A DNA stretch of 64,000 nucleotides from contig CBDBZY010000016.1 in assembly GCA_965213685.1 (NCBI GenBank), forward strand, positions 288,001 through 352,000, given 5' to 3'. The position numbers and the translations under genes are program-made. Every line of letters starts with the position of its first letter. Position 1 is the stretch's first letter. Below the pieces are notes generated by a model. The model was not told where the DNA came from and ran no database searches. It saw nothing but the letters and a program-made list of their open reading frames with translations. Of this stretch, positions 1 through 64,000 are shown piece after piece. The stretch comes from a bacterium (lineage in GTDB: Bacteria > UBA8248).

Positions 1-15
1 TAGGAGTAAGCATAG

Positions 16-655
16 AAACAAGGGCATTATCTTACATCTGACCAACAAATGTTCTCCATCTCCAAATTTGGGATAAAAGTAACAGACTCCCAAAGGCAGC
101 GCGTTTTCACCCGCCACCCCCTGCACCGAATAGTGAACATCACCTACTATGAGGACACGTACAAGAAGCACATGCTGGCAGTGAGGGTGTCTGGAGCAGA
201 GGACGGGCAGCAAGAGCTGCACATTTATGAGAGTGAGAGTGAGGTGAGGAGTGCAGGGAAACCCCTCTCATTAGGACACCCTTAATTAGGACACCTTGAG
301 AGACAGATCACTATTGCTATCCCATATACCATATCTGTGTTCATGCCAATGAGGACACCATTCTAGTGAGGACAGTCCTTCTTTGTGCCAAGAGTGGTTT
401 GATTAGAGGGGCTCTATGCTGTGCACCATGTTGCTTGCGTGCTGTAGTGATCCAATTCACTCAGTTATGCATTAACACTTTCACCATCACTCCTTCTCCC
501 CCTCCCTCACTCTTCCCTCCCTCTCTCCTTCCCTCTCTTGCCACCATCCCCAGGCACAGGCTAAGGACATCTGCCTCACTCTGGCTCAGGCATTTGAGGC
601 AGTCTACAACAAACTGCAGTTGGAACAGAACCTCCACTCCTCAGACCTCAGATAG
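16..655 (+). pseudogene. ITGB1BP1: ICAP1-like PTB gene copy I0, last two exons only (5'-rearranged type)
   Basis: Exon MFSISKFGIKV...ESESE|gtgagg and last exon AQAKDICLTLAQAFEAVY...TAG(655). The 5' edge matches the degraded copy at 14517, not the intact copies. Confidence 0.65.
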
Positions 656-959
656 CCTGTGTATTGTGTCAATGTACCTATATGTACACATACTTAACTA
701 TGACATCATCTCTATAATACTGTTTACTCTGATTACATGACTGTGCATAATGATTATTTCAAACATTGCCATCATAGCTAATACTGACCAATCATATTCC
801 ATTATCCATACATGGGCACCATGATTCCACTTATGCTTAAAACATATCATGAATATGATGACACCTCCTATGCTCAGCAGTTACCATAACAACGTACAGA
901 AAAACAAGGTCCTTGTTCTCCATTGCGTTGCCTTACTGGAGCACCCTGGGAAGCCCACA

Positions 960-3092
960 ATGGCTCAAAATCCAGACGTTCCCTCCCTTACCCCTCGAGA
1001 CCTCACCCTCCCTGGTAGGTCCCTCCCTCCTGCCATGCCCCTCATCATCTCCACCCAAGACAGGTGGGACCCTCACAGCTGCAAGCTGGAGACTCACCAG
1101 CACAACAGCCAGCCACAACACCTACAGCTAGTCACAGACACTCTACAACTGCTGGGAACCATCAACAAGCCTGTGGCTGTCCTGTCCATCTGTGGCCCCT
1201 ATCGCTCGGGGAAGTCCTACTTCATCTCCCGACTGCTGGGCAGGCCTGGGGCCTTTCAGCTGGGCCACAGTATGCGAGCCTGTACACGTGGAATCTGGAT
1301 GGCCACCACTGTCCTGGAGTGTGAGCAGTTTGCCACAATCCTGCTGGATACGGAAGGCATCGATGCCATTGGAGCCTCCGAGACCATGGCCATGAGCTTG
1401 CTGACTGTCACCACACTCCTCAGCTCCTACCTCATCTACAACTCCAAGAAGGTGCCCCAGAAGGTGGACCTGGACAAGATGAGGTGCTTCACCCAGCTCT
1501 CCAGGTCTCTGCTTGTGCAGAAAGGGGAGTCCATGAGGGCAGAGGTCATGAGGAAGTTCTTCCCTCACTTTCTGTGGCTACTGCGAGACGTGACACTGAC
1601 TGTGACAGACAGAGCCGGCCAGACCATCTCAGCCACTGAGTTCCTGCACACTCGTGTGCTGGCATCCGAAGCTGGCCAGCCTACAGAGCTGGGCAAGTCT
1701 CTTTGCAGCCTCTTCCCCTCACTGGAGTGCCACACTCTTCCCATGCCAAGCATCAACCCCAAAGTCATCAAGAACATTGTGGAGCAACAGGACAAGCTGG
1801 AACCAGCATTCAACAAGGCAGTGGATGAGCTGATCCAGCGAATCCTGCAGCAAGTCACACCCAAGAAAGCCATCGATGGAGTGAATGTGGTGGATGGCCC
1901 AGCTCTCGCTGCTCTGACCCGTGGGTATGTGGATGCCATCAACACACCAGGAGCAATACCAGACCTGGAACAAGGCTGGCAGGCCGTCATCAAGTGGAAA
2001 CTGAAGGAACTGTCAGACAAGCTAGTGGAGGAGTACAGGAGAGAGATGGAGGAATGTTTAGGAGACAATCTTCCCATGGAGGAGAGGAATCTGATGAGAA
2101 TCCACAAACAGACACTGAGCAGGAAAAGGGAGTCACTGCAGCAGGAGATCCGTCGACTCAAGCCATTGAGTTCCACCTCTGGAGACAAAGACCCAGTCCT
2201 CAGTCAACTGGAGCAGGCAATCAGTCAGACAAATGAGGGGGGTGAGGTGATTGGGGGGGTCCTGTTCCAGTTCACCACTCACAACTACTCCAAGTCCAAG
2301 CAGCAGTGTGAAGAGGTGCTGATGGAAGCAGTGAAGAGCAGTGAAATTCACAAGAAGTGTCAAGAAGCCTTCATCAACTCACAGCCACTGGACATAATGG
2401 CAGAGATACAGGAGATTGAGTGGCAATACCACAGGCAAGCTGTCGGACCAGCAGCCAGTGAAGTGCTGGAGAAAGGCCTCAGAGAACTGAACCAACTGGG
2501 AGACTCACTCAAGAGAATTCCTGGCCCACCTCGTGAGGTGAGGGACATTGGACGAGGACCTGATCGAGTGAAGCTGAGCTGGAAACCTCCAGAGAAGAAC
2601 CCTGAGGCTGCTGAGAGCTATGTGGTGTGGAAACAAGAGGAGGGGAAGCAGTGGGAGAGGGTGAGGGAGACAAAGAAGACCAAAATCCTCATCACTGGAC
2701 TGAAGTCAGGGACATACTACCAGTTCAGAGTCACAGCCACTAATGACCTGATTAAGAGTGTGGATACAACACAGCGCTCAGAGACAAATGTGTCAAAAGC
2801 TAAGATGGGAGCTATTGGTGGTGGTTTTGGAGCACTTGGATTTGCAGTGTCCCCAGTTTTAGGTTATTTGGCTATGACTAATGGAGACATGAGTACAAGA
2901 AAAATAGTAGCCATATCAGTCGCCACTGCACCAATCAGCCTCATATGTGCTCCAGTTACTGCTACTGTGGGTGCAGTTTGGTTTGCTAGGGAAGAGATCA
3001 AGGACTGGTGCTACAGTGGAGACCTGTCCCCAGAGAGTGATGATCTGTCCCCAGAGAGTGATGATGAAACATCATGTGACTCCACAGAATGA
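960..3092 (+). CDS. GBP/atlastin-family GTPase-FN3-hydrophobic hairpin protein, copy G1 (intronless; N-terminus MAQNPDV)
   Basis: G1 GPYRSGKS, G2 CTRGIW, G3 LLDTEG, G4 WLLRD; FN3 PGPP..VKLSW..GLKSGTYYQFRVTATN; two hydrophobic segments; 21-nt DLSPESD duplication in the tail. ATG 960 chosen by homology with other copies (ORF opens at 849). Confidence 0.9.
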   Translation: MAQNPDVPSLTPRDLTLPGRSLPPAMPLIISTQDRWDPHSCKLETHQHNSQPQHLQLVTDTLQLLGTINKPVAVLSICGPYRSGKSYFISRLLGRPGAFQLGHSMRACTRGIWMATTVLECEQFATILLDTEGIDAIGASETMAMSLLTVTTLLSSYLIYNSKKVPQKVDLDKMRCFTQLSRSLLVQKGESMRAEVMRKFFPHFLWLLRDVTLTVTDRAGQTISATEFLHTRVLASEAGQPTELGKSLCSLFPSLECHTLPMPSINPKVIKNIVEQQDKLEPAFNKAVDELIQRILQQVTPKKAIDGVNVVDGPALAALTRGYVDAINTPGAIPDLEQGWQAVIKWKLKELSDKLVEEYRREMEECLGDNLPMEERNLMRIHKQTLSRKRESLQQEIRRLKPLSSTSGDKDPVLSQLEQAISQTNEGGEVIGGVLFQFTTHNYSKSKQQCEEVLMEAVKSSEIHKKCQEAFINSQPLDIMAEIQEIEWQYHRQAVGPAASEVLEKGLRELNQLGDSLKRIPGPPREVRDIGRGPDRVKLSWKPPEKNPEAAESYVVWKQEEGKQWERVRETKKTKILITGLKSGTYYQFRVTATNDLIKSVDTTQRSETNVSKAKMGAIGGGFGALGFAVSPVLGYLAMTNGDMSTRKIVAISVATAPISLICAPVTATVGAVWFAREEIKDWCYSGDLSPESDDLSPESDDETSCDSTE

Positions 3093-3482
3093 CATGACAA
3101 TACTCTATGGCTAGCTATAGCTGCTCTTGTGTGTACAAGTTCATGTACTCTCATACCTGCCACAATACACACAATGTACACATGTATTTTGATATAATTA
3201 TTATGGAGTGGATATAACTCAATACAAGCTTTGTTACTATGACACTGTGTTGGCATGGCAACAGCAGACCCTGAGTGAGCATCCATAGTGTGGGTGGAGC
3301 CAGAGAGGTCACCAGTGGGTAGCACACACAGCAGTGATCATCACTGGTTGTCATGACAAGATGGGCCCCTGTCAATTATTATGTAGTTGGCAGGTCCCTA
3401 TAACATGTCGCAGTCTGTACCGGCTTCTGGTGCAATCTCATTGGTCATTTGATTCTTCTCATCACATGATTTGCTTGCATTG

Positions 3483-5773
<2,291 letters not shown>

Positions 5774-8174: not shown

Positions 8175-10292
8175 ATGGCTAAGAAGCAGGAAGTTCCCTC
8201 TCTCACCCCTCGAGACCTCACCCTCCCTGGTAGGTCCCTCCCTCCTGCCATGCCCCTCATCATCTCCACCCAAGACAGGTGGGACCCTCACAGCTGCAAG
8301 CTGGAGACTCACCAGCACAACAGCCAACCACAACACCTACAGCTAGTCACAGACACTCTGCAACTGCTGGGAACCATCAACAAGCCTGTGGCTGTCCTGT
8401 CCATCTGTGGCCCCTACCGCTCGGGGAAGTCCTACTTCATCTCCCGACTGCTGGGCAGGCCTGGGGCCTTTCAGCTGGGCCACAGGATGCAAGCCTGTAC
8501 ACGTGGAATCTGGATGGCCACCACTGTCCTGGAGTGTGAGCAGTTTGTCACAATCCTGCTGGACACAGAAGGCATCGATGCCATTAGAGCCTCCGAGACC
8601 ATGGATGCAAGCTTGCTGACTGTCACCACACTCCTCAGCTCCTACCTCATCTACAACTCCATGAAGGTGCCCCAGAAGGTGGATCTGGACAAGATGAGGT
8701 GCTTCACCCAGCTCTCCAGGTCTCTGCTCGTGCAGAAAGGGGAGTCCATGAGGGCAGAGGTCATGAGGAAGTTCTTCCCTCACTTTCTGTGGCTACTGCG
8801 AGATGTGACACTGAAAGTGACAGACAGAGCCGGCCAGACCATCTCAGCCACTGAGTTCCTGCACACTCGTGTGCTGGCATCACAATCTGGCCAGCCTACA
8901 GAGCTGGGCAAGTCTCTTTGCAGCCTCTTCCCCTCACTAGAATGCCACACTCTTCCCATGCCAAGCATCAACCCCAAAGTCATCAAGAACATTGTGGAGC
9001 AACAGGACAAGCTGAAACCAGCATTCAACAAGGCAGTGGATGAACTGATCCAGCGAATCCTGCAGCAAGTCACACCCAAGAAAGCCATCAATGGAGTGAG
9101 TGTGGTGGATGGCCCAGCTCTAGCTGCTCTGACCCGTGGCTATGTGGATGCCATCAACACACCAGGAGCAATACCAGACCTGGAACAAGGCTGGCAGGCC
9201 GTCATCAAGTGGAAACTGAAGGAACTGTCAGACAAGCTAGTGGAGGAGTACAGGAGAGAGATGGAGAAATGTTTAGGAGACAATCTTCCCATGGAGGAGA
9301 GGAATCTGATGAGAATCCACAAACAGACACTGAGCAGGAAAAGGGATTCACTGCAGCAGGAGATCCATCGGCTCAAACCATTGAGTTCCACCTCTGGAGA
9401 CAAAAACCCAATCCTGATCATGAGTCAACTGGAGCAGACAATCAGTCAGACAAACGAGGGGGGTGAGGTGATTGGGGGGGTCCTGTTCCAGTTCACCACT
9501 CAGAACTATTACAAGTCCAAGCAGCAGTGTGAAGAGGTGCTGATGGAAGCAGTGAAGAGCAGTGGAATTCACAAGAAGTGTCAGGAAGCCTTCATCAACT
9601 CACAGCCACTGGACATAATGGCAGAGATATGGGATATTCATACACAATACTGCAAGCAAGCTGTCGGACCAGCAGCCAATGAAGTACTGGAGAAAGGTCA
9701 CAGAGAACTGAACCAACTGGGAGACTCACTCAAGAGAATTCCTGGCCCACCTAGTGAGGTGGAGGTCATTGGAGAGGGATCTGATCGAGTGAAGCTGAGC
9801 TGGCAACCTCCAGAGAAGAACCCTGAGGCTGCTGAGAGCTATGTGGTGTGGAAACAAGAGAAGGGGAAGCAGTGGGAGAGGGTGAGGGAGACAAAGAAGA
9901 CCAAAATCCTCATCACTGGACTGAAGTCAGGGACAGTGTACCAGTTCAGAGTCACAGCCACTAATGACCTGATTAAGAGTGTGGCTACAACACAGTGCTC
10001 ATTGACAAAGGAGTCAAAAGCTATGATGGGAGCTATTGGTGGTGGTGCAGGAGCACTTGCATTTGCATTGTCCCCAGTTTTAGGTTATGTGGCTATGACT
10101 GAAGGAGGCATGAGTACAAGAAAAATAGTAGCCATATCAGTCGCCACTGCACCAATCAGCCTCATATGTGCTCCAGTTACTGCTACTGTGGGTGGAGTTT
10201 GGGCTGCTAGGGAAATGATCAAGGATGAGCGTGACTGGGGAGACCTGTCCCCAGGGAGTGATGATGAGACGTCATGTGACTCCACAGAATGA
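8175..10292 (+). CDS. GBP-FN3-hairpin protein copy G2 (N-terminus MAKKQEV)
   Basis: Intact ORF with the same motifs as G1; in-frame upstream ATG at 8082 is a possible alternative start. Confidence 0.9.
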   Translation: MAKKQEVPSLTPRDLTLPGRSLPPAMPLIISTQDRWDPHSCKLETHQHNSQPQHLQLVTDTLQLLGTINKPVAVLSICGPYRSGKSYFISRLLGRPGAFQLGHRMQACTRGIWMATTVLECEQFVTILLDTEGIDAIRASETMDASLLTVTTLLSSYLIYNSMKVPQKVDLDKMRCFTQLSRSLLVQKGESMRAEVMRKFFPHFLWLLRDVTLKVTDRAGQTISATEFLHTRVLASQSGQPTELGKSLCSLFPSLECHTLPMPSINPKVIKNIVEQQDKLKPAFNKAVDELIQRILQQVTPKKAINGVSVVDGPALAALTRGYVDAINTPGAIPDLEQGWQAVIKWKLKELSDKLVEEYRREMEKCLGDNLPMEERNLMRIHKQTLSRKRDSLQQEIHRLKPLSSTSGDKNPILIMSQLEQTISQTNEGGEVIGGVLFQFTTQNYYKSKQQCEEVLMEAVKSSGIHKKCQEAFINSQPLDIMAEIWDIHTQYCKQAVGPAANEVLEKGHRELNQLGDSLKRIPGPPSEVEVIGEGSDRVKLSWQPPEKNPEAAESYVVWKQEKGKQWERVRETKKTKILITGLKSGTVYQFRVTATNDLIKSVATTQCSLTKESKAMMGAIGGGAGALAFALSPVLGYVAMTEGGMSTRKIVAISVATAPISLICAPVTATVGGVWAAREMIKDERDWGDLSPGSDDETSCDSTE

Positions 10293-11664: not shown

Positions 11665-13797
11665 ATGGCTGCCTCTGGAGCCACAGCTGAGGATGTTAGT
11701 GCCTCCTCCCTCACCCCTCGAGACCTCACCCTCCCTGGTAGGTCCCTCCCTCCTGCCATGCCCCTCATCATCTCCACCCAAGACAGGTGGGACCCTCACA
11801 GCTGCAAGCTGGAGACTCACCAGCACAACAGCCAACCACAATACCTACAGCTAGTCACAGACACTCTACAACTGCTGGGAACCATCAACAAGCCTGTGGC
11901 TATCCTGTCCATCTGTGGCCCCTACCGCTCAGGGAAGTCCTACTTCATCTCCCGACTGCTGGGCAGGCCTGGGGCCTTTCAGCTGGGCCACAGGATGCAA
12001 GCCTGTACACGTGGAATCTGGATGGCCACCACTGTCCTGGAGTGTGAGCAGTTTGCCATAATCCTGCTGGACACAGAAGGCATTGATGCCATTGGAGCCT
12101 CCGAGACCATGGCCATGAGCTTGCTGACTGTCACCACACTCCTCAGCTCCTACCTCATCTACAACTCCAAGAAGGTGCCCCAGAAGGTGGACCTGGACAA
12201 GATGAGGTGCTTCACCCAGCTCTCCAGGTCTCTGCTCGTGCAGAAAGGGGAGTCCATGAGGGCAGAGGTCGTGAGGGAGTTCTTCCCTCACTTTCTGTGG
12301 CTACTGCGAGATGTGACACTGAAAGTGACAGACAGAGCCGGCCAGACCATCTCAGCCACTGAGTTCCTGCACACTCGTGTGCTGGCATCACAGTCTGGCC
12401 AGCCTACAGAGCTGGGCAAGTCTCTTTGCAGCCTCTTCCCCTCACTGGAATGCCACACTCTTCCCATGCCAAGCATCAACCCCAAAGTCATCAAGAACAT
12501 TGTGGAGCAACAGGACAAGCTGAAACCAGCATTCAACAAGGCAGTAGATGAGCTGATCCAGCGAATCCTGCAGCAAGTCACGCCCAAGAAAGCCATTGGT
12601 GGAGTGAGTGTGGTGGATGGCCCAGCTCTAGCTGCTCTGACCCGTGGCTATGTGGATGCCATCAACACACCAGGAGCAATACCAGACCTGGAACAAGGCT
12701 GGCAGGCCATCATCAAGTGGAAACTGAAGGAACTATCAGACAAGCTAGTGGAGGAGTACAGGAGAGAGATGGAGGAATGTTTAGGAGACAATCTTCCCAT
12801 GGAGGAGAGGAATCTGATGAGAATCCACCAACAGACACTGAGCAGGAAAAGGGAGTCACTGCAGCAGGAGATCCGTTGACTCAAGCCATTGAGTTCCACC
12901 TCTGGAGACAAAGACCCAGTCCTGAGTCAACTGGAGCAGACAATCAGTCAGACAAACGAGGGGGGTGAGGTGATTGGGGGGGTCCTGTTCCAGTTCACCA
13001 CTCACAACTATTCCAAGTCCAAGCAGCAATGTGAAGAGGTGCTGATGGAAGCAGTGAAGAGCAGTGGAATTCACAAGAAGTGTCAGGAAGCCTTCATCAA
13101 CTCTCATCCACTGGACATAATGGCAGAGATATGGGATATTCATACACAATACTGCAAGCAAGCTGTTGGACCAGCAGCTGGTGAAGTGCTGAAAAAAGGT
13201 CACAGAGAACTGAACCAACTGGGAGACTCACTCAAGAGAATTCCTGGCCCACCTTGTGAGGTGGAGGTCATTGGATGGGGACCTGATCGAGTGAAGCTGA
13301 GCTGGCAACCTCCAAAGAAGAACCCTGAGGCTGCTGAGAGCTATGTGGTGTGGAAACAAGAGGAGGGAATGCAGTGGGAGAGGGTGAGGGAGACAAAGAA
13401 GACCAAAATCCTCATCACTGGACTGAAGTCAGACACAGACTACCAGTTCAGAATCACAGCCACTAATGACCTGATTAAGAGTGTGGCTGCAACACATGAC
13501 TCATGGACAATGGAGTCAAAAGCTAAGATGGGAGCTCTTGCTGGTGGTGTAGGAGCAATTACATTGTCACTGATGCCAGTTGCAGCAGCTATTGCGAATG
13601 TGACTGCTGAAGACATGAGTGGAGGAAAAATAGTAGCCATATCAGTCGCCACTTTACCAATTAGCCTCATATGTGCTCCAGTTACTGCTACTGTGGGTGG
13701 AGTTTGGATTGCTAGGGAAGTGATCAAGGACGGATGCTACAGTGGAGACCTGTCCCCAGAGAGTGATGATGAGACGTCATGTGACTCCACAGAGTGA
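11665..13797 (+). pseudogene. GBP-FN3-hairpin copy G3 with in-frame nonsense codon (N-terminus MAASGATAEDV)
   Basis: CGA>TGA at 12877-12879; the frame is otherwise open to the normal stop. Confidence 0.85.
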
Positions 13798-34748: not shown

Positions 34749-36878
34749 ATGGCTGCCTCTGTAGCCATAGCTGAGGATGTTAGTGCCTCCTCCCTCACCC
34801 CTCGAGACCTCACCCTCCCTGGTAGGTCCCTCCCTCCTGCCATGCCCCTCATCATCTCCACCCAAGACAGGTGGGACCCTCACAGCTGCAAGCTGGAGAC
34901 TCACCAGCACAACAGCCAACCACAATACCTACAGCTAGTCACAGACACTCTACAACTGCTGGGAACCATCAACAAGCCTGTGGCTGTCCTGTCCATCTGT
35001 GGCCCCTACCGCTCGGGGAAGTCCTACTTCATCTCCCGACTGCTGGGCAGGCCTGGGGCCTTTCAGCTGGGCCACAGGATGCAAGCCTGTACACGTGGAA
35101 TCTGGATGGCCACCACTGTCCTGGAGTGTGAGCAGTTTGTCACGATCTTGCTGGACACGGAAGGCATTGATGCCATTAGAGCCTCCGAGACCATGGATGC
35201 GAGCTTGCTGACTGTCACCACACTCCTCAGCTCCTACCTCATCTACAACTCCATGAAGGTGCCCCAGAAGGTGGATCTGGACAAGATGAGGTGCTTCACC
35301 CAGCTCTCCAGGTCTCTGCTTGTGCAGAAAGGGGAGTCCATGAGGGCAGAGGTCATGAGGAAGTTCTTCCCTCACTTTCTGTGGCTGCTGCGAGACGTGA
35401 CACTGAAAGTGATAGACAGAGCCGGCCAGACCATCTCAGCCACTGAGTTCCTGCACACTCGTGTGCTGGCATCACAATCTGGCCAGCCTACAGAGATGGG
35501 CAAGTCTCTTTGCAGCCTCTTCCCCTCACTGGAATGCCACACTCTTCCCATGCCAAGCATCAACCCCAAAGTCATCAAGAACATTGTGGAGCAACAGGAC
35601 AAGCTGAAACCAGCATTCAACAAGGCAGTGGATGAGCTGATCCAGCGAATCCTGCAGCAAGTCATGCCCAAGAAAGCCATCGATGGAGTGAGTGTGGTGG
35701 ATGGCCCAGCTCTAGCTGCTCTGACCTGTGGCTATGTGGATGCCATCAACACGCCAGGAGCAATACCAGACCTGGAACAAGGCTGGCAGGCCGTCATCAA
35801 GTGGAAACTGAAGGAACTATCAGACAAGCTAGTGGAGGAGTACAGGAGAGAGATGGAGGAATGTTTAGGAGAAAATCTTCCCATGGAGGAGAGAAATCTG
35901 ATGAGAATCCACCAACAGACACTGAGCAGGAAAAGGGAGTCACTGCAGCAGGAGATCTGTCGACTCAAGGCATTGAGTTCCACCTCTGGAGACAAAGACC
36001 CAATCCTCAGTCAACTGGAGCAGGCAATCAGTCAGACAAACGAGGGGGGCGAGGTGATTGGGGGGGTCCTGTTCCAGTTCACCACTCACAACTACTCCAA
36101 GTCCAAGCAGCAGTGTGAAGAGGTGCTGATGGAAGCACTGAAGAGCAGTGGAATTTACAAAAAGTGTCAAGAAGCCTTCATCAACTCACAGCCACTGGAC
36201 ATAATGGCAGAGATACAGGAGATTGACAGGCAATACCACAAGCAAGCTGTTGGACCAGCAGCCAGTGAAGTGCTGGAGAAAGGTCACAGAGAACTGAACC
36301 AACTGGGAGACTCACTCAAGAGAATTCCTGGCCCACCTCATGAGGTGAGGGACATTGGACGAGGATCTGATCGAGTGAAGCTGAGGTGGCAACCTCCAAA
36401 GAAGAACCCTGAGGCTGCTGAGAGCTATGTGGTGTGGAAACAAGAGGAGGGGAAGCAGTGGGAGAGGGTGAGGGAGACAAAGAAGACCAAAATCCTCATC
36501 ACTGGACTGAAGTCAGACACAGACTACCAGTTCAGAGTCACAGCCACTAATGACCTGATTAAGAGTGTGGCTACAACACAGGACTCATGTACAATGGAGT
36601 CAAAAGCTAAGGTGGGAGCTCAAGGTGGTGGTAAAGGAGCACTTGCACTTGCATTGTCCCCAGTTTTAGGTTATGATGCTATGACTGAAGGAGACATGAG
36701 TACAAGAAAAGTAGTAGCCATATCACTCGCCACTGCACCAATCAGCCTCATATGTGCTCCAGTTACTGCTACTGTGGGTGCAGTTTGGGCTGCTAGGGAG
36801 TTCATCAAGGAAGAGTGCTACAGTGGAGACCTGTCCCCAGAGAGTGATGATGAGACGTCATGTGACTCCACAGAATGA
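34749..36878 (+). CDS. GBP-FN3-hairpin protein copy G6 (MAASVAIAEDV)
   Basis: Intact ORF. Confidence 0.9.
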   Translation: MAASVAIAEDVSASSLTPRDLTLPGRSLPPAMPLIISTQDRWDPHSCKLETHQHNSQPQYLQLVTDTLQLLGTINKPVAVLSICGPYRSGKSYFISRLLGRPGAFQLGHRMQACTRGIWMATTVLECEQFVTILLDTEGIDAIRASETMDASLLTVTTLLSSYLIYNSMKVPQKVDLDKMRCFTQLSRSLLVQKGESMRAEVMRKFFPHFLWLLRDVTLKVIDRAGQTISATEFLHTRVLASQSGQPTEMGKSLCSLFPSLECHTLPMPSINPKVIKNIVEQQDKLKPAFNKAVDELIQRILQQVMPKKAIDGVSVVDGPALAALTCGYVDAINTPGAIPDLEQGWQAVIKWKLKELSDKLVEEYRREMEECLGENLPMEERNLMRIHQQTLSRKRESLQQEICRLKALSSTSGDKDPILSQLEQAISQTNEGGEVIGGVLFQFTTHNYSKSKQQCEEVLMEALKSSGIYKKCQEAFINSQPLDIMAEIQEIDRQYHKQAVGPAASEVLEKGHRELNQLGDSLKRIPGPPHEVRDIGRGSDRVKLRWQPPKKNPEAAESYVVWKQEEGKQWERVRETKKTKILITGLKSDTDYQFRVTATNDLIKSVATTQDSCTMESKAKVGAQGGGKGALALALSPVLGYDAMTEGDMSTRKVVAISLATAPISLICAPVTATVGAVWAAREFIKEECYSGDLSPESDDETSCDSTE

Positions 36879-44315: not shown

Positions 44316-46430
44316 ATGGCTAAGAAGCAGGAAGTTCCCTCCCTCACCCCTCGAGACCTCACCCTCCCTGGTAGGTCCCTCCCTCCTGCCATGCCCCTCA
44401 TCATCTCCACCCAAGACAGGTGGGACCCTCACAGCTGCAAGCTGGAGACTCACCAGCACAACAGCCAACCACAACACCTACAGATAGTCACAGACACTCT
44501 ACAGCTGCTGGGAACCATCAACAAGCCTGTGGCTGTCCTGTCCATCTGTGGCCCCTACCGCTCAGGGAAGTCCTACTTCATCTCCCGACTGCTGGGCAGG
44601 CCTGGGACCTTTCAGCTGGGCCACAGGATGCAAGCCTGTACACATGGAATCTGGATGGCCACCACTGTCCTGGAGTGTGAGCAGTTTGCCATAATAATGC
44701 TAGATACAGAAGGTATCGATGCCATTAGAGCCTCTGAGACCATGGCCATGAGCCTGCTGACTGTCACCACACTCCTCAGCTCCTACCTCATCTACAACTC
44801 CAAGAAGGTGCCCCAGAAGGTGGACCTGGACAAGATGAGGTGCTTCACCCAGCTCTCCAGGTCTCTGCTCGTGCAGAAAGGGGAGTCCATGAGGGCAGAG
44901 ATCATGAGGAAGTTCTTCCCTCACTTTCTGTGGCTACTGCGAGATGTGACACTGAAAGTGACAGACAGAGTTGGCCAGACCATCTCAGCCACTGAGTTCC
45001 TGCACACTCGTGTGCTGGCATCAGAAGCTGGCCAGCCTACAGAGCTGGGCAAGTCTCTTTGCAGCCTCTTCCCCTCACTGGAATGCCACACTCTTCCCAT
45101 GCCAAGCATCAACCCCAAAGTCATCAAGAACATTGTGGAGCAACAGGACAAGCTCAAACCAGCATTCAACAAGGCAGTGGATGAACTGATCCAGCGAATC
45201 CTGCAGCAAGTCACGCCCAAGAAAGCCATCGATGGAGTGAGTGTGGTGGATGGCCCAGCTCTAGCTGCTCTGACCCGTGGCTATGTGGATGCCATCAACA
45301 CACCAGGAGCAATACCAGACCTGGAACAAGGCTGGCAGGCTGTCATCAAGTGGAAACTGAAGGAACTATCACACAAGCTAGTGGAGGAGTACAGGAGAGA
45401 GATGGAGGAATGTTTAGGAGACAATCTTCCAATGGAGGAGAGGAATCTGATGAGAATCCACCAACAGACACTGAGCAGGAAAAGAGAGTCACTGCAGCAG
45501 GAGATCCGTCGACTCAAGCCATTGAGTTCCACCTCTGGAGACAAAGACCCAGTCCTCAGTCAACTGGAGCAGGCAATCAGTCAGACAAACGAGGGGGGTG
45601 AGGTGATTGGGGGGGTCCTGTTCCAGTTCACCACTCACAACTACTCCAAGTCCAAGCAGCAGTGTGAAGAGGTGCTGGTGGAAGCAGTGAAGAGCAGTGG
45701 AATACGCAAGAAGTGTCAGGAAGCCTTCATCACCTCACAGCCACTGGACATAATGGCAGAGATACAGGAGATTGACAGGCAATACCACAGGCAAGCTGTT
45801 GGACCAGCAGCCAGTGAAGTGCTGGAGAAAGGCCACAGAGAACTGAACCAGCTGGGAGACTCACTCAAGAGAATTCCTGGCCCACCTAGTGAGGTGGAGG
45901 TCATTGGAAAGGGACCTGATCGAGTGAAGCTGAGCTGGCAACCTCCAGAGAAGAACCCTGAGGCTGCTGAGAGCTATGTGGTGTGGAAACAAGAGGAGGG
46001 GATGGAGTGGGAGAGGGTGAGGGAGACAAAGAAGACCAAAATCCTCATCACTGGACTGAAGTCAGGGACAAAGTACCAGTTCAGAGTCACAGCCACTAAT
46101 GACCTGATTAAGAGTGTGACTATAACACAGGACTCACAGACATTGTGGTCAAAAGCTAAGATGGGAGCTATTGCTGGTGGTGCAGGAGCAATTGGTCTGT
46201 CTCTGATGCCAGTTGCACTTGCTATTCATGTTATGAGTGATAAAAAAATGAGTATAAAAATGGCAGTAGCCATATCAGTCGCCACTGCACCAATCAACCT
46301 CATATGTGCTCCAGTTACTGCTACTGTGGGTGGAGTTTGGTTTGCTAGGCAAATGATCAATTTGTGCTACCACAGTGGAGACCTGTCCCCAGAGAGTGAT
46401 GATGAGACGTCATGTGACTCCACAGAATGA
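44316..46430 (+). CDS. GBP-FN3-hairpin protein copy G7 (MAKKQEV)
   Basis: Intact ORF (upstream ATG at 44223); G2 motif variant CTHGIW. Confidence 0.9.
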   Translation: MAKKQEVPSLTPRDLTLPGRSLPPAMPLIISTQDRWDPHSCKLETHQHNSQPQHLQIVTDTLQLLGTINKPVAVLSICGPYRSGKSYFISRLLGRPGTFQLGHRMQACTHGIWMATTVLECEQFAIIMLDTEGIDAIRASETMAMSLLTVTTLLSSYLIYNSKKVPQKVDLDKMRCFTQLSRSLLVQKGESMRAEIMRKFFPHFLWLLRDVTLKVTDRVGQTISATEFLHTRVLASEAGQPTELGKSLCSLFPSLECHTLPMPSINPKVIKNIVEQQDKLKPAFNKAVDELIQRILQQVTPKKAIDGVSVVDGPALAALTRGYVDAINTPGAIPDLEQGWQAVIKWKLKELSHKLVEEYRREMEECLGDNLPMEERNLMRIHQQTLSRKRESLQQEIRRLKPLSSTSGDKDPVLSQLEQAISQTNEGGEVIGGVLFQFTTHNYSKSKQQCEEVLVEAVKSSGIRKKCQEAFITSQPLDIMAEIQEIDRQYHRQAVGPAASEVLEKGHRELNQLGDSLKRIPGPPSEVEVIGKGPDRVKLSWQPPEKNPEAAESYVVWKQEEGMEWERVRETKKTKILITGLKSGTKYQFRVTATNDLIKSVTITQDSQTLWSKAKMGAIAGGAGAIGLSLMPVALAIHVMSDKKMSIKMAVAISVATAPINLICAPVTATVGGVWFARQMINLCYHSGDLSPESDDETSCDSTE

Positions 46431-48876: not shown

Positions 48877-50988
48877 ATGGCTGCCTGTGGAGACACAGTT
48901 GAGAAAGCTGCCTCCTCCCTCACCCCTCGAGACCTCACCCTCCCTGGTAGGTCCCTCCCTCCTGCCATGCCCCTCATCATCTCCACCCAAGACAGCTGGG
49001 ACCCTCACAGCTGCAAGCTGGAGACTCACCAGCACAACAGCCAACCACAACACCTACAGATAGTCACAGACACTCTACAACTGCTGGGAACCATCAACAA
49101 GCCTGTGGCTGTCCTGTCCATCTGTGGCCCCTACCGCTCGGGGAAATCCTACTTCATCTCCCGACTGCTGGGCAGGCCTGGGGCCTTTCAGCTGGGCCAC
49201 AGGATGCAAGCCTGTACACGTGGAATCTGGATGGCCACCACTGTCCTGGAGTGTGAGCAGTTTGCCACAATCCTGCTGGACACGGAAGGCATCGATGCCA
49301 TTAGAGCCTCTAAGACCATGGATGCAAGCTTGCTGACTGTCACCACACTCCTCAGCTCCTACCTCATCTACAACTCCATGAAGGTGCCCCAGAAGGTGGA
49401 CCTGGACAAGATGAGGTGCTTCACCCAGCTCTCCAGGTCTCTGCTCGTGCAGAAAGAGGAGTCCATGAGGGCAGAGGTCATGAGGAAGTTCTTCCCTCAC
49501 TTTCTGTGGCTACTGCGAGACGTGACACTGAAAGTGACAGACAGAGCCGGCCAGACCATCTCGGCCACTGAGTTCCTGCACACTCGTGTGCTGGCATCAG
49601 AAGCTGGCCAGCCTACAGAGCTGGGCAAGTCTCTTTGCAGCCTCTTCCCCTCACTGGAAGGCCACACTCTTCCCATGCCAAGTATCAACCCCAAAGTCAT
49701 CAAGAACATTGTGGAGCAACAGGACAAGCTGAAACCAGCATTCAACAAGGCAGTGGATGAGCTGATCCAGCGAATCCTGCAGCAAGTCACACCCAAGAAA
49801 GCCATCGATGGAGTGAGTGTGGTGGATGGCCCAGCTCTAGCTGCTCTGACCCGTGGCTATGTGGATGCCATCAACACACCAGGAGCAATACCACACCTGG
49901 AACAAGGCTGGCAGGCCGTCATCAAGTGGAAACTGAAGGAACTATCAGACAAGCTAGTGGAGGAGTACAGGAGAGAGATGGAGGAATGTTTAGAAGGCAA
50001 TCTTCCCATGGAGGAGAGGAATCTGATGAGAATCCACCAACAGACACTGAGCAGGAAAAGGGAGTCACTGCAGCAGGAGATCCGTCGACTCAAGCCATTG
50101 AGTTCCACCTCTGGAGACAAACACCCAGTCCTCAGTCAACTGGAGCAGGCAATCAGTCAGACAAATGAGGGGGGTGAGGTGATTGGGGGGGTCCTGTTCC
50201 AGTTCACCACTCACAACTACTCCAAGTCCAAGCAGCAGTGTGAAGAGGTGCTGATGGAAGCAGTGAAGAGCAGTGGAATTCACAAGAAGTGTCAGGAAGC
50301 CTTCATCAACTCACAGCCACTGGACATAATGGCAGAGATACAGGAGATTGACCGGCAATACCACAGGCAAGCTGTCGGACCAGCAGCCAGTGAAGTGCTG
50401 GAGAAAGGCCACAGAGAACTGAACCAACTGGGAGACTCACTCAAGAGAATTCCTGGCCCACCTCGTGAGGTGAGGGACATTGGACGAGGACCTGATCGAG
50501 TGAAGCTGAGCTGGAAACCTCCAGAGAAGAACCCTGAGGCTGCTGAGAGCTATGTGGTGTGGAAACAAGAGGAGGGAAAGCAGTGGGAGAGGGTGAGGGA
50601 GACAAAGAAGACCAAAATCCTCATCACTGGACTGAAGTCAGAGACGGACTACCAGTTCAGAGTCACAGCCACTAATGACCTGATTAAGAGTGTGGCTACA
50701 ACACAGGACTCGGAGACAATGATGTCAAAAGCTAAGAGGGGAGCTCTTGCTGGTGGTGTAGGAGCAGTTGTATTTCTATTAGCCCCACTGACAACTACTT
50801 ATATGGCTAAGACTGATGAAGAGATCAGTACAGGAAAAATAGTAGCCATATCAGTCACCACTGCACCAATCAGCCTCATATGTGCTCCAGTTACTGCTAC
50901 TGTGGGTGGAGTTTGGCTTGCTAGGGAAGTGATCAAGCAAGGGTGCTACAGTGGAGACCTGTCCCCAGAGAGTGATGATGAGACATAA
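48877..50988 (+). CDS. GBP-FN3-hairpin protein copy G8 (MAACGDTVEK), lacking the last 6 residues
   Basis: Open ORF; TCA>TAA removes SCDSTE; most divergent hairpin of the set. Confidence 0.88.
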   Translation: MAACGDTVEKAASSLTPRDLTLPGRSLPPAMPLIISTQDSWDPHSCKLETHQHNSQPQHLQIVTDTLQLLGTINKPVAVLSICGPYRSGKSYFISRLLGRPGAFQLGHRMQACTRGIWMATTVLECEQFATILLDTEGIDAIRASKTMDASLLTVTTLLSSYLIYNSMKVPQKVDLDKMRCFTQLSRSLLVQKEESMRAEVMRKFFPHFLWLLRDVTLKVTDRAGQTISATEFLHTRVLASEAGQPTELGKSLCSLFPSLEGHTLPMPSINPKVIKNIVEQQDKLKPAFNKAVDELIQRILQQVTPKKAIDGVSVVDGPALAALTRGYVDAINTPGAIPHLEQGWQAVIKWKLKELSDKLVEEYRREMEECLEGNLPMEERNLMRIHQQTLSRKRESLQQEIRRLKPLSSTSGDKHPVLSQLEQAISQTNEGGEVIGGVLFQFTTHNYSKSKQQCEEVLMEAVKSSGIHKKCQEAFINSQPLDIMAEIQEIDRQYHRQAVGPAASEVLEKGHRELNQLGDSLKRIPGPPREVRDIGRGPDRVKLSWKPPEKNPEAAESYVVWKQEEGKQWERVRETKKTKILITGLKSETDYQFRVTATNDLIKSVATTQDSETMMSKAKRGALAGGVGAVVFLLAPLTTTYMAKTDEEISTGKIVAISVTTAPISLICAPVTATVGGVWLAREVIKQGCYSGDLSPESDDET

Positions 50989-51313
50989 TGTGACTCCACA
51001 GAATGACATGACAATACTCTATGGCTAGCTATAGCTGCTCTTGTGTGTACACGTTCATGTACTCTCATACTTGCCACAATAATCACAACATGCAATTATG
51101 CACATTTTGATATCATTATTATGGAGTGGATGTAACTCAATACAAGCTTTGTTACTATGACATTGTGTTGGCATGGCAACAGCAGACCCTGAGTGAGCAT
51201 CCATAGTGTGGGTGGAGCCAGAGAGGTCACCAGTGGGTAGCACACACAGCAGTGATCATCACTGGTTGCCATGACGAGATGGCCTCTGTCCTTATTGTGT
51301 AGTTGCCATGTCC

Positions 51314-59925: not shown

Positions 59926-62055
59926 ATGGCTGCCTGTGGAGACACAGTTGAGAAAGCTGCCTCCTCCCTCACCCCTCGAGACCTCACCCTCCCTGGTAGG
60001 TCCCTCCCTCCTGCCATGCCCCTCATCATCTCCACCCAAGACAGCTGGGACCCTCACAGCTGCAAGCTGGAGACTCACCAGCACAACAGCCAACCACAAC
60101 ACCTACAGATAGTCACAGACACTCTACAACTGCTGGGAACCATCAACAAGCCTGTGGCTGTCCTGTCCATCTGTGGCCCCTACCGCTCAGGGAAGTCCTA
60201 CTTCATCTCCCGACTGCTGGGCAGGCCTGGGGCCTTTCAGCTGGGCCACAGGATGCAAGCCTGTACACGTGGAATCTGGATGGCCACCACTGTCCTGGAG
60301 TGTGAGCAGTTTGTCACAATCCTGCTGGACACGGAAGGTATCGATGCCATTAGAGCCTCCGAGACCATGGCCATGAGCTTGCTGACTGTCACCACACTCC
60401 TCAGCTCCTACCTCATCTACAATTCCATGAAGGTGCCCCAGAAGGTGGACCTGGACAAGATGAGGTGCTTCACCCAGCTCTCCAGGTCTCTGCTCGTGCA
60501 GAAAGGGGAGTCCATGACGGCAGAGGTCATGAGGAAGTTCTTCTCTCACTTTCTGTGGCTACTGCGAGACGTGACACTGAAAGTGACAGACAGAGCCGGC
60601 CAGACCATCTCAGCCACTGAGTTCCTGCACACTCGTGTGCTGGCATCACAGTCTGGCCAGCCTACAGAGCTGGGCAAGTCTCTTTGCAGCCTCTTCCCCT
60701 CACTGGAATGCCACACTCTTCCCATGCCAAGCATCAACCCCAAAGTCATCAAGAACATTGTGGAGCAACAGGACAAGCTGAAACCAGCATTCAACAAGGC
60801 AGTGGATGAGCTGATCCACCGAATTCTGCAGCAAGTCACGCCCAAGAAAGCCATCAATGGAGTGAGTGTGGTGGATGGCCCAGCTCTAGCTGCTCTGACC
60901 CGTGGCTATGTGGATGCCATCAACACACCAGGAGCAATACCAGACCTGGAACAAGGCTGGCAGGCCGTCATCAAGTGGAAACTGAAGGAACTATCAGACA
61001 AGCTAGTGGAGGAGTACAGGAGAGAGATGGAGGAATGTTTAGGAGACAATCTTCCCATGGAGGAGAGGAATCTGATGAGAATCCACCAACAGACACTGAG
61101 CAGGAAAAGGGAGTCACTGCAGCTGGAGATCCGTCGACTCAAGCCATTGAGTTCCACCTCTGGAGACAAAGACCCAGTCCTGAGTCAACTGGAGCAGGCA
61201 ATCAGTCAGACAAACAAGGGGGGTGATGTGATTGGGGGGGTCCTGTTCCAGTTCACCACTCACAACTACTCCAAGTCCAAGCAGCAGTGTGAAGAGGTGC
61301 TGATGGAAGCAGTGAAGAGCAGTGGAATTCACAAGAAGTGTCAGGAAGCCTTCATCAACTCACAGCCACTGGACATAATGGCAGAGATACAGGAGATTGA
61401 CAGGCAATACCACAGGCAAGCTGTCGGACCAGCAGCCAGTGAAGTGCTGGAGAAAGGCCACAGAGAACTGAACCAACTGGGAGACTCACTCAAGAGAATT
61501 CCTGGCCCTCCTGGTAAGGTGGTGATCATTGGACGAGGATCTGATCGAGTGAAGCTGAGCTGGCAACCTCCAGAGAAGAACCCTGAGGCTGCTGAGAGCT
61601 ATGTGGTGTGGAAACAAGAGGAGGGGAAGCAGTGGGAGAGGGTGAGGGAGACAAAGAAGACCAAAATCCTCATCACTGGACTGAAGTCAAACACAGACTA
61701 CCAGTTCAGAGTCACAGCCACTAATGACCTAATTAAGAGTGTGGCTACAACACAGAACTCATGGACATATGAGTCAAAAGCTAAGGTGGGAGCTATTGCT
61801 GGTGGTAAAGGAGCAGTTGTATTTGCATTGTCCCCAGTTATAGGTTATGAGTCTATGACTGGTAGATACATGAGTGTAAGAAAAGTAGTAGCCATATCAG
61901 TCGCCATTGCACCACTCAGCCTCATATGTGCTCCAGTTACTGCTACTGTGGGTGGAGTTTGGGCTGCTAGGGAAGAGATCAATCAAATCAGATGCTACAG
62001 TGGAGACCTGTCTCCAGAGAGTGATGATGAGACGTCATGTGACTCCACAGAATGA
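59926..62055 (+). CDS. GBP-FN3-hairpin protein copy G9 (MAACGDTVEK)
   Basis: Intact ORF. Confidence 0.9.
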   Translation: MAACGDTVEKAASSLTPRDLTLPGRSLPPAMPLIISTQDSWDPHSCKLETHQHNSQPQHLQIVTDTLQLLGTINKPVAVLSICGPYRSGKSYFISRLLGRPGAFQLGHRMQACTRGIWMATTVLECEQFVTILLDTEGIDAIRASETMAMSLLTVTTLLSSYLIYNSMKVPQKVDLDKMRCFTQLSRSLLVQKGESMTAEVMRKFFSHFLWLLRDVTLKVTDRAGQTISATEFLHTRVLASQSGQPTELGKSLCSLFPSLECHTLPMPSINPKVIKNIVEQQDKLKPAFNKAVDELIHRILQQVTPKKAINGVSVVDGPALAALTRGYVDAINTPGAIPDLEQGWQAVIKWKLKELSDKLVEEYRREMEECLGDNLPMEERNLMRIHQQTLSRKRESLQLEIRRLKPLSSTSGDKDPVLSQLEQAISQTNKGGDVIGGVLFQFTTHNYSKSKQQCEEVLMEAVKSSGIHKKCQEAFINSQPLDIMAEIQEIDRQYHRQAVGPAASEVLEKGHRELNQLGDSLKRIPGPPGKVVIIGRGSDRVKLSWQPPEKNPEAAESYVVWKQEEGKQWERVRETKKTKILITGLKSNTDYQFRVTATNDLIKSVATTQNSWTYESKAKVGAIAGGKGAVVFALSPVIGYESMTGRYMSVRKVVAISVAIAPLSLICAPVTATVGGVWAAREEINQIRCYSGDLSPESDDETSCDSTE

Positions 62056-62491: not shown

Positions 62492-64000
<1,509 letters not shown>

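Follow-up and report, generated by a model that had tools for sequence, protein, structure and literature searches.

Introduction

GBPs are central effectors of vertebrate cell-autonomous immunity, and what directs them to particular membranes is under active study. Vertebrate GBP1–7 carry conserved nucleotide-binding motifs, are encoded by tandem multigene families with gain and loss, and use a lipid anchor at the membrane. Passages of a study of primate GBPs describe rapid evolution of a short polybasic motif that adjoins the C-terminal anchor and governs the detection of bacteria (Kohler et al. 2020, PMC7240152). Here, we describe a tandem array of predicted GBP-family genes, part of which lies in a 64,000-nt stretch of DNA (the window; positions 288,001–352,000, + strand reading, of contig CBDBZY010000016.1, hereafter C16). 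In each protein, a GBP GTPase domain is followed by the beginning of the GBP helical domain and additional helices, then by an FN3 domain, two hydrophobic helices, and a conserved acidic tail.

The array proteins keep the nucleotide-binding motifs of the vertebrate GBPs and likewise form a tandem multigene family with gain and loss, whereas they carry an FN3 domain and two hydrophobic helices where the vertebrate proteins have a lipid anchor. The fast-evolving element also differs, being a basic peptide in the primate GBPs, as far as those passages describe it, and a folded surface plus helix faces in the array. The predicted layout is that of atlastin, Sey1, and RHD3, namely a GBP-like GTPase, a helical middle domain, two closely spaced hydrophobic helices, and a short cytosolic tail, although by sequence the array GTPase is much closer to GBPs than to atlastins. 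Atlastins are not known to have an FN3 domain and are conserved, low-copy housekeeping genes; the array, in contrast, is hypervariable and comprises 28 copies.

The FN3 domain shares its fold with titin-type FN3s, monobodies, and FN3con. Classical FN3 binders are diversified in the N-terminal-pole loops BC, DE, and FG, whereas in the array the loops of this pole are constant, and the opposite pole and strands A and G vary. Septin/AIG1-type GTPase–FN3 fusions, mostly molluscan, are the nearest clusters in a protein language model (scores 0.80–0.81, below 0.9 and a lead only) and also join an immune-type GTPase to an FN3 domain; they differ in GTPase family (PF00735/PF04548, not PF02263) and are likened by language-model features only. 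The GBP domain is listed as enriched in the sponge Xestospongia testudinaria in part of one report (PMC4772301), and GBP GTPases fused to TRADD-N domains are described among animal conflict systems in part of another (PMC8195603). A full-text literature search returned no paper on a GBP–FN3 fusion or on such sponge GBPs, although supplementary domain tables may hold counts.

Results

Variable positions of the FN3 domain

The window contains nine intronless paralogs on the + strand, G1–G9, of which G1, G2, G5, G6, G7, and G9 are intact. Residue numbers count from the ATG of G1 at window position 960. A sequence-only reading of the window had proposed that the FN3 domains of G1–G9 vary only in strand A, the AB loop, the EF loop, and strand G, the variable patch facing the hairpin or the membrane. 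The residues on which this proposal was based were reproduced exactly for PP-x (R,S,C,R,S,H,S,R,G), for IG-x-G (R,E,W,R,Q,R,K,R,R; codons cga/gag/tgg/cag/aag), for KS-xTx (GTY,GTV,DTD,ETD,NTK,DTD,GTK,ETD,NTD), and for the listed strings of the last strand (G).

In G1–G9, an entropy of at least 1 bit was observed at residues 525, 528, 529, 532, 584, 586, 602, 603, 606, 608, 610, and 611. All 12 sites are among the 32 positions formed by strand A, the AB turn, the EF loop with the first residue of strand F, and strand G with the following linker, against none of the 61 positions elsewhere in the domain (Fisher 5.4e-7). R528 and D529, which had been absent from the lists, are equally variable. 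The claim that variation is confined to these segments therefore stands for the strongly variable sites and is too strong in its wording, since 8 of the 61 other positions vary at a low level in the nine copies, mostly between two states (e.g. K/Q542 and E/K545). Moreover, variation runs past window position 2795 and is stronger in 2796–2906.

Essentially the same distribution was observed over the whole array. Twenty-six of its 28 full or near-full copies were aligned (a13, with a frameshift, and a15, with an internal deletion, were excluded; a12 has a one-residue deletion), and the sites of at least 1 bit again numbered 12/32 in the A, AB, EF, and G segments and 0/61 elsewhere. The 17 aligned copies that lie outside the window, which the sequence-only reading had not seen, gave 11/32 and 0/61, at the same sites except 611 (p = 2.1e-6). 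Conversely, the BC and FG loops were constant, as had been claimed, NPEAAE being invariant in 26/26 copies and TNDLIK in 25/26, and the 17 residues of the N-terminal-pole loops showed a mean entropy of 0.08 bit in the 26 copies.

The codons between the variable sites are nearly identical even at third positions, with six FN3 codons varying synonymously alone in the nine copies. Over the 36 pairs of these copies, the proportion of synonymous differences (pS) in the FN3 domain was 0.039, compared to a proportion of nonsynonymous differences (pN) of 0.076; pS of the GTPase domain was higher, at 0.058.

The comparison was extended at the protein level to database relatives, for which 116 candidates yielded 104 unique FN3 domains that were non-identical to the array over the first 60 residues; domains with more than 8 gaps were dropped, and clades with at least five members were used. 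Entropy was raised in the same segments in four of the five other clades (Mann–Whitney p = 1.8e-4, 2.4e-4, 1.2e-3, and 2.3e-3). Charged, aromatic, and small residues are all tolerated at the variable sites, as seen at site 532 (R/W/K/Q/S/E) and site 608 (W/Q/L/E/Y/C/H), which is an indirect sign that they are probably exposed.

Placement of the variable sites in structural models

The C-terminal module was modelled with AlphaFold2 (AF2) from a 51-row alignment, giving a mean predicted local distance difference test (pLDDT) of 84.3 and a predicted template modelling score of 0.71. The pLDDT values were 95–98 over most of the FN3 domain and 89–94 over strand G. In a full-length model (mean pLDDT 51.9, with the GTPase part below 50), the FN3 strand limits are usable and agree with those of the module. 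In Foldseek searches, the domain matched FN3con (4u3h) with a root-mean-square deviation of 1.3 over 91 columns and titin FN3s with 1.8–2.4, at 24–32% identity across the top matches.

The AF2 strands are A (525–532), B (536–542), C (553–560), C' (565–571), E (575–579), F (586–594), and G (599/603–608). The assignment of the variable sites to strand A, AB, EF, and strand G, originally drawn from general FN3 topology, holds within these limits: 525–532 form strand A, 534 is in the AB turn, 584 in the EF loop, 586 is the first residue of strand F, 602–608 are in strand G, and 610–611 are in a four-residue linker. The linker joins strand G to a helix at 613–629, and the model is confident here (block pLDDT 94 and 86).

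In the textbook FN3 fold, the edge strands A and G share one side of the sandwich and run from the N- to the C-terminal pole. The AB and EF turns belong to the C-terminal pole, and the BC, C'E, and FG loops to the N-terminal pole. On a crude axial coordinate derived from the strand directions, the variable sites had a mean of 0.29, compared to 0.53 for all residues, and are thus nearer the C-terminal pole (permutation p = 0.015). This bias, together with the short linker into the helix, gives partial support to the proposal that the patch faces the hairpin or membrane. Residues 525, 602, and 603 do not fit it, as 525 is at the N-terminal-pole end of strand A, and 602 and 603 are in the N-terminal third to half of strand G. 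In the model, strands A and G together with the AB and EF turns of the C-terminal pole would describe the patch better than the pole alone. The strongest sites of strand G (602, 606, 608, and 610) alternate with the conserved T604, S607, and T609, which fits one face of the strand; the beta-periodicity of entropy was not significant for strand G (p = 0.12) or strand A (p = 0.83).

Selection on the variable sites

For the nine copies, pairwise Nei–Gojobori ratios of nonsynonymous to synonymous substitution rates (dN/dS) were 0.31 for the GTPase domain, 0.43 for the helical domain, 1.99 for FN3, 2.42 for helix 1 with its loop, and 2.73 for helix 2. For the 26 copies, with P(dN≤dS) from a codon bootstrap, the ratios were 1.83 for helix 1 with its loop (P = 0.004), 1.35 for FN3 (P = 0.105), 0.32 for the GTPase domain, and 0.37 for the helical domain (both P = 1.0, dN being below dS in every replicate). 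The case for selection is therefore one of heterogeneity among sites, not of the domain average.

Site heterogeneity was assessed with our own simplified script for codon site models (GY94, F3x4, an IQ-TREE tree for each block, only a global branch scale fitted, naive empirical Bayes (NEB) posteriors). For the FN3 domain, omega was 1.56 under M0, and M2a was preferred over M1a with a likelihood-ratio test (LRT) statistic of 157.2, omega2 being 11.1 on 14% of the codons. NEB posteriors for this class exceeded 0.9 at 525, 528, 529, 532, 534, 584, 586, 602, 606, 608, and 610. The two halves of the domain, each on its own tree, gave LRT values of 38.6 and 90.6, and the helices with the loop gave 158, with omega2 = 6.3 on 32% of the codons. 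Same-length control blocks from the same array gave only 0.76 and 1.45 for the GTPase domain and 7.3 and 7.1 for the helical domain. These controls argue against a general artefact without removing the concern about recombination.

Since recombination can inflate such tests, changes were also counted without a tree, from minimum spanning trees of codon states. Minimum nonsynonymous and synonymous changes were 94.5:31.5 for FN3, compared to 141.5:119.5 for the GTPase and helical domains together (odds ratio 2.5, p = 7e-5), and 132:34 for helix 1 with its loop (p = 5e-8). Multi-nucleotide codon steps, a count that the sequence-only reading had called for, were enriched in FN3 (10 in 93 codons versus 10 in 511). 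The 12 variable FN3 codons required a minimum of 61 nonsynonymous and 5 synonymous changes. Nonsynonymous change per site was 2.08 at these codons and 0.18 elsewhere in the domain, whereas synonymous change per synonymous site was 0.74 and 0.48, respectively (1.5-fold), so a locally elevated mutation rate cannot explain the pattern.

The codon-level tests cover this array. A search for related loci gave one spurious FN3 match, in a bacterial bin, among genome contigs and none among metagenome contigs. These results show that positive selection is focused on defined positions of the FN3 domain and the helices, whereas purifying selection acts on the GTPase domain and most of the helical domain, as well as on the core of the FN3 domain, helix 2, and the tail. 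Gene conversion probably also helps to keep the constant parts constant.

The wider variable zone and its reassortment

In the 26 copies, sites with at least 1 bit of entropy numbered 2/297 in the GTPase domain, 8/214 in the helical domain, 12/93 in FN3, 23/37 in helix 1 with its loop, 0/24 in helix 2, 7/14 in the helix after helix 2, and 0/23 in the tail. Variation thus extends over a longer zone, of which the FN3 patch is one end and from which the FN3 core, helix 2, and the tail are exempt. The selected sites of helix 1 (619, 623, 627, 631, and 634) show helical spacing, and G617, G621, G622, G624, and A625 are constant. The helical moment of entropy at 100 degrees was significant for helix 1 (p = 0.02–0.04) and for residues 670–687 (p = 0.002–0.004).

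The four-gamete test was failed by 34–50% of the informative nucleotide pairs, indicating pervasive recombination. Among the 26 copies, the A cassettes fall into 24 distinct types, the G cassettes into 21, and helix 1 into 20, and nearly every copy has its own combination of variable positions. In the last helix before the FN3 domain, residues 484–492 of G1 (window ~2409–2435) occur in three main forms, QEIDRQYHR, WDIHTQYCK, and QEIEWQYHR, with eight types in all; these forms reassort with the FN3 cassettes, and their block is the helical control with weak evidence of selection (LRT 7.1).

Domain architecture and relatives

By domain scores and motifs, the array proteins are members of the GBP family (PF02263, dynamin superfamily). 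In an alignment of G1 to human GBP2 (7e58), the P-loop with its arginine (ICGPYRSGKSY/IVGLYRTGKSY), the switch-I threonine (ACTRGIWM/SHTKGIWM), the DTEG motif (LLDTEG/LLDTEG), and the RD motif (FLWLLRDVTL/FVWTLRDFTL) are all kept. The GBP_C profile (PF02841) scored 44.7 bits against a cut-off of 24.3, although, unlike in vertebrate GBPs, the match covers profile positions 3–78 of 297 only. Helices up to residue 517 were predicted at low confidence in the full-length model. Within the FN3 domain, W541 (the core tryptophan), Y587 (of the tyrosine corner), L581, A593, and N595 are invariant (W541 and Y587 in 27 sequences).

The module model places the two C-terminal helices at 613–639 and 646–684. 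Their best 19-residue Kyte–Doolittle means (median of 26 copies) are 1.77 for helix 1 and 1.99 for helix 2; helix 1 of G1 itself reaches 1.51. No CaaX box or polybasic motif was found, as all copies end in ...SCDSTE or a close variant; these elements occur in only some GBPs and do not define the family. The Ser/Asp/Glu-rich acidic tail (GDLSPESDDETSCDSTE) is almost invariant in the array and recognisable in distant clades, and a 7-residue duplication within it (LSPESDD) is unique to G1. The tail may be akin to acidic-cluster sorting or kinase sites.

Among relatives with solved structures, human GBP2, GBP1, and GBP5 score best (E ~1e-31), followed by atlastin-1 (E 8e-9). Residues 40–440 of G1 matched 213 clusters at E ≤ 1e-20; among the best 120 of the 213, nearly all carry PF02263, PF02841, and PF00041 together, and no source gave a name for any of these 120. 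By these matches, the family is large. A search of a representative library with the C-terminal module matched 214 proteins at E ≤ 1e-30, mostly giant multi-FN3 proteins, with few family members among the best 150, and gives no estimate of family size.

Origin of the contig

The bin containing C16 (7.97 Mb) is filed as prokaryotic and is bimodal. Many contigs have ~65% G+C and long stop-free frames covering 97–100% of their length, whereas C16, C64, C18, C41, C51, and C7, which are all the contigs above 400 kb, have 44–53% G+C and long-frame cover of 23–51%, and some smaller contigs are alike. The window has eukaryotic traits, namely long non-coding spacers, (CA)n and GGGAGG-type tracts, and a long terminal repeat (LTR) retroelement. 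In addition, 31-mers of G1 occur in public runs labelled sponge metagenome from several studies. Because the bin is bimodal and the 31-mers occur in these runs, the bin is taken as chimeric and C16 as a mis-binned contig of a eukaryote, most probably the host sponge.

Contigs assembled by Logan from one run (X1) match G1-specific stretches at 2505–2596 and 2744–2912 exactly, and this run may be the source sample. In run X1, word depth over window positions 800–3300 is in the thousands in stretches common to all copies, 350 at 2505–2596, and 81 at 2744–2912, which fits many copies sharing their conserved parts, although such depths cannot be ranked. Contigs of another run (X6) do not cover 2480–2647 and 2816–2899 at 98% likeness, which is uninformative. 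No RNA run is listed among the sequencing runs with G1 31-mers; contigs of two runs guessed to be RNA match short pieces between ~1120 and 2650, mainly in the GTPase and helical parts, which say nothing on expression, ends, or introns.

Discussion

We favour, with some reserve, the reading that the locus is a GBP-family array of ~28 genes diversified by positive selection on a membrane-proximal recognition or arms-race surface, its core being held under purifying selection. The locus combines tandem paralogs, pseudogenes, recombination, and a class of codons with omega above 1 (with the caveats of the site model), as in positively selected immune multigene arrays. According to this reading, the FN3 domain and the two hydrophobic helices would replace the lipid anchor of vertebrate GBPs. 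With two adjacent helices and no N-terminal signal-like segment, the proteins may be seated like atlastins with both ends in the cytosol, in which case the C-terminal pole of the FN3 domain would rest on the membrane. Strands A and G, the AB and EF turns, the variable face of helix 1, the loop, and the face after helix 2 would then form a composite surface at or in the membrane, which might recognise varied microbial or compartment-specific ligands or be the target of microbial antagonists. The array would thereby constitute a repertoire of differently aimed membrane-anchored GBP effectors.

Several points weigh against this reading. The FN3-wide dN/dS in the 26 paralogs is not significantly greater than 1, and the minimum-change ratio for the whole domain is 0.85. 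The site model assumes one tree despite pervasive recombination, which is known to inflate such tests, and the 12 sites of the 61:5 count were picked for being variable, so that this contrast is descriptive only. Among the other clades, the fifth was not significant (p = 0.082), and two vary also at 542/545 and in the FG loop, so that the constancy of that pole does not extend to all clades. Damage by an early stop, frameshift, internal deletion, or retroelement insertion affects six of the 28 copies (a11, a13, a15, G3, G4, and G8), and a08 appears, unconfirmed, to stop 11 codons short of the usual end. A single contiguous surface is conjectural, the sponge origin is drawn solely from which public runs contain the 31-mers, and expression, membrane insertion, topology, and an immune role of the array proteins are putative.

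The bolder form of the favoured reading, a single germline-diversified recognition surface at and partly inside the membrane, with ~25 modules each aiming a GBP effector at a different microbial or symbiont-compartment membrane, would amount to a sponge receptor repertoire fused to its effector; we regard it as a tentative and rather unlikely refinement. A slightly smaller chance is given to target escape, in which the variable surface of the FN3 domain and helices is where microbial antagonists (effectors, proteases, or ligases) bind, and diversification lets the paralogs elude these antagonists. Escape would leave the same selection signal, and the sequence cannot separate it from recognition; the 24 distinct A cassettes among 26 copies look more like a maintained repertoire than like serial sweeps, a weak argument, as the readings are not exclusive. 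Variation on one face of two helices and on FN3 edge strands, elements typical of protein–protein contacts, could also reflect a paralog-specific assembly code, the variable surface serving for self-association into coats of one kind or of defined pairs, and the conserved G617, G621, G624, and A625 suggest that helix 1 packs against another helix. We consider such a code improbable, because GBPs and atlastins dimerise through their conserved GTPase domain.

Neutral relaxation of unconstrained surface positions, with conversion homogenising the rest, would agree with the pervasive recombination and gene conversion and with the unremarkable FN3-wide average. It is very improbable in our view, since conversion acts equally on synonymous and nonsynonymous sites and cannot yield an omega of ~11 or 61:5 changes, and since the same positions recur in other clades and multi-nucleotide steps are enriched. 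A reverse transcriptase gene in the window might point to targeted mutagenesis, by a diversity-generating retroelement or hypermutation, to which, together with an assembly artefact, we give almost no credence. This reverse transcriptase, the only one found, belongs to a Ty3/gypsy-type gag-pol with an integrase between identical LTRs, and the changes are not adenine-specific, so that the locus does not resemble the target of a diversity-generating retroelement, although no dedicated search for a template repeat was made. Moreover, the variation is between germline paralogs, codon changes such as cga/gag/tgg/cag/aag involve all bases and positions, and synonymous change at the variable codons is raised just 1.5-fold. 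An artefact is opposed by the exact matches of the run X1 contigs to G1-specific stretches and by the related, distinct proteins from other assemblies.

If the favoured reading is true, the array would represent a different GBP aiming device, an FN3 domain plus a helical membrane anchor diversified over a large array, in an early-branching, microbe-rich animal. It is uncommon for positive selection to act on a single face of a membrane helix, and this would point to recognition, or to evasion, taking place at the bilayer or inside it. In the FN3 domain, nature would moreover have diversified the pole and edge that engineered binders usually keep constant.

Copies and other features of the array

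The array spans ~200 kb of C16 (178,747–375,530), with all 28 full or near-full copies on the + strand, plus fragments. The copies have a common start, 'MA...', just upstream of SLTPRD. The features of G1 and the copies in the window are listed in Table 1.

Table 1. Coordinates of the predicted segments of G1 and of the array copies, as positions in the window.
Feature	Position	Strand	Description	Evidence
G1	960..3092	+	intact and intronless; 710 codons and a stop; all parts from the GBP GTPase domain to the acidic tail	open reading frame (ORF), Pfam
GBP N-terminal GTPase domain of G1	1119..1859	+	residues 54-300 (91-337 of the 747-aa ORF)	PF02263, 131.9 bits vs cut-off 21.1
FN3 domain of G1	2517..2795	+	residues 520-612	PF00041, 37.6 bits vs cut-off 25; AF2; Foldseek
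Strand A and AB turn	2532..2561	+	selected codons R525, R528, D529, R532, P534	entropy; NEB posterior >0.9 for omega>1 class
EF loop and start of strand F	2709..2717	+	selected codons G584, Y586	entropy, site models
Strand G and linker to helix 1	2763..2792	+	variable D602, T603, R606, E608, N610, V611; conserved S607, T609	alignment, site model, entropy
Hydrophobic helix 1 and following loop	2796..2906	+	residues 613-649; most variable part of the protein	
Hydrophobic helix 2	2907..2978	+	residues 650-673; nearly invariant	
Helix continuing after helix 2	2979..3020	+	residues 674-687; one face variable	
Conserved acidic tail	3021..3089	+	ends ...GDLSPESDDETSCDSTE; 7-residue duplication in G1	
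G2	8175..10292	+	intact; FN3 at 9738-10016	
G3	11665..13797	+	in-frame TGA at 12877-12879; FN3 at 13240-13518	
G4	16005..22621	+	LTR retroelement inserted at 16893-21380; TGA as in G3; FN3 at 22070-22348	
G5	28899..31007	+	intact; FN3 at 30456-30734	
Partial copy (tenth)	31722..32338	+	broken; part of FN3 and helices, stop(s) and frameshift	
G6	34749..36878	+	intact; FN3 at 36324-36602	
G7	44316..46430	+	intact; FN3 at 45873-46151	
G8	48877..51006	+	TAA (50986-50988) 6 codons before the usual end; FN3 at 50449-50727	
G9	59926..62055	+	intact; FN3 at 61498-61776	

G3 and G4 are pseudogenes, both by the in-frame TGA and G4 also by the retroelement. The nonsense TGA common to the two is an arginine codon in the other copies, which suggests that it spread between paralogs by duplication or conversion. 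The retroelement in G4 has 195-nt LTRs that are 100% identical (16893–17087 and 21186–21380), a 5-bp target-site duplication, and a single 1316-codon gag-pol ORF with protease, reverse transcriptase, RNase H, and integrase domains; the insertion looks recent. The array evolves by birth-and-death, with duplication, loss, and recombination.

The broken tenth copy is nearly identical to G7 at the variable sites. Degenerate copies of the family, in several frames, are also found off the array, at C64:1589043-1590945 and C64:300949-301399, on one of the eukaryote-like contigs. Upstream of G1, window positions 1–660 seem to include parts of the coding sequence of a different gene, where a pyrimidine-rich tract precedes a possible exon at ~552–655. 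The spacers (3540–5460, downstream of other copies, and 62492–63583) contain long purine/pyrimidine tracts (GGGAGG/CCCTCC) and (CA)n/(GT)n microsatellites, which give rise to spurious long ORFs.

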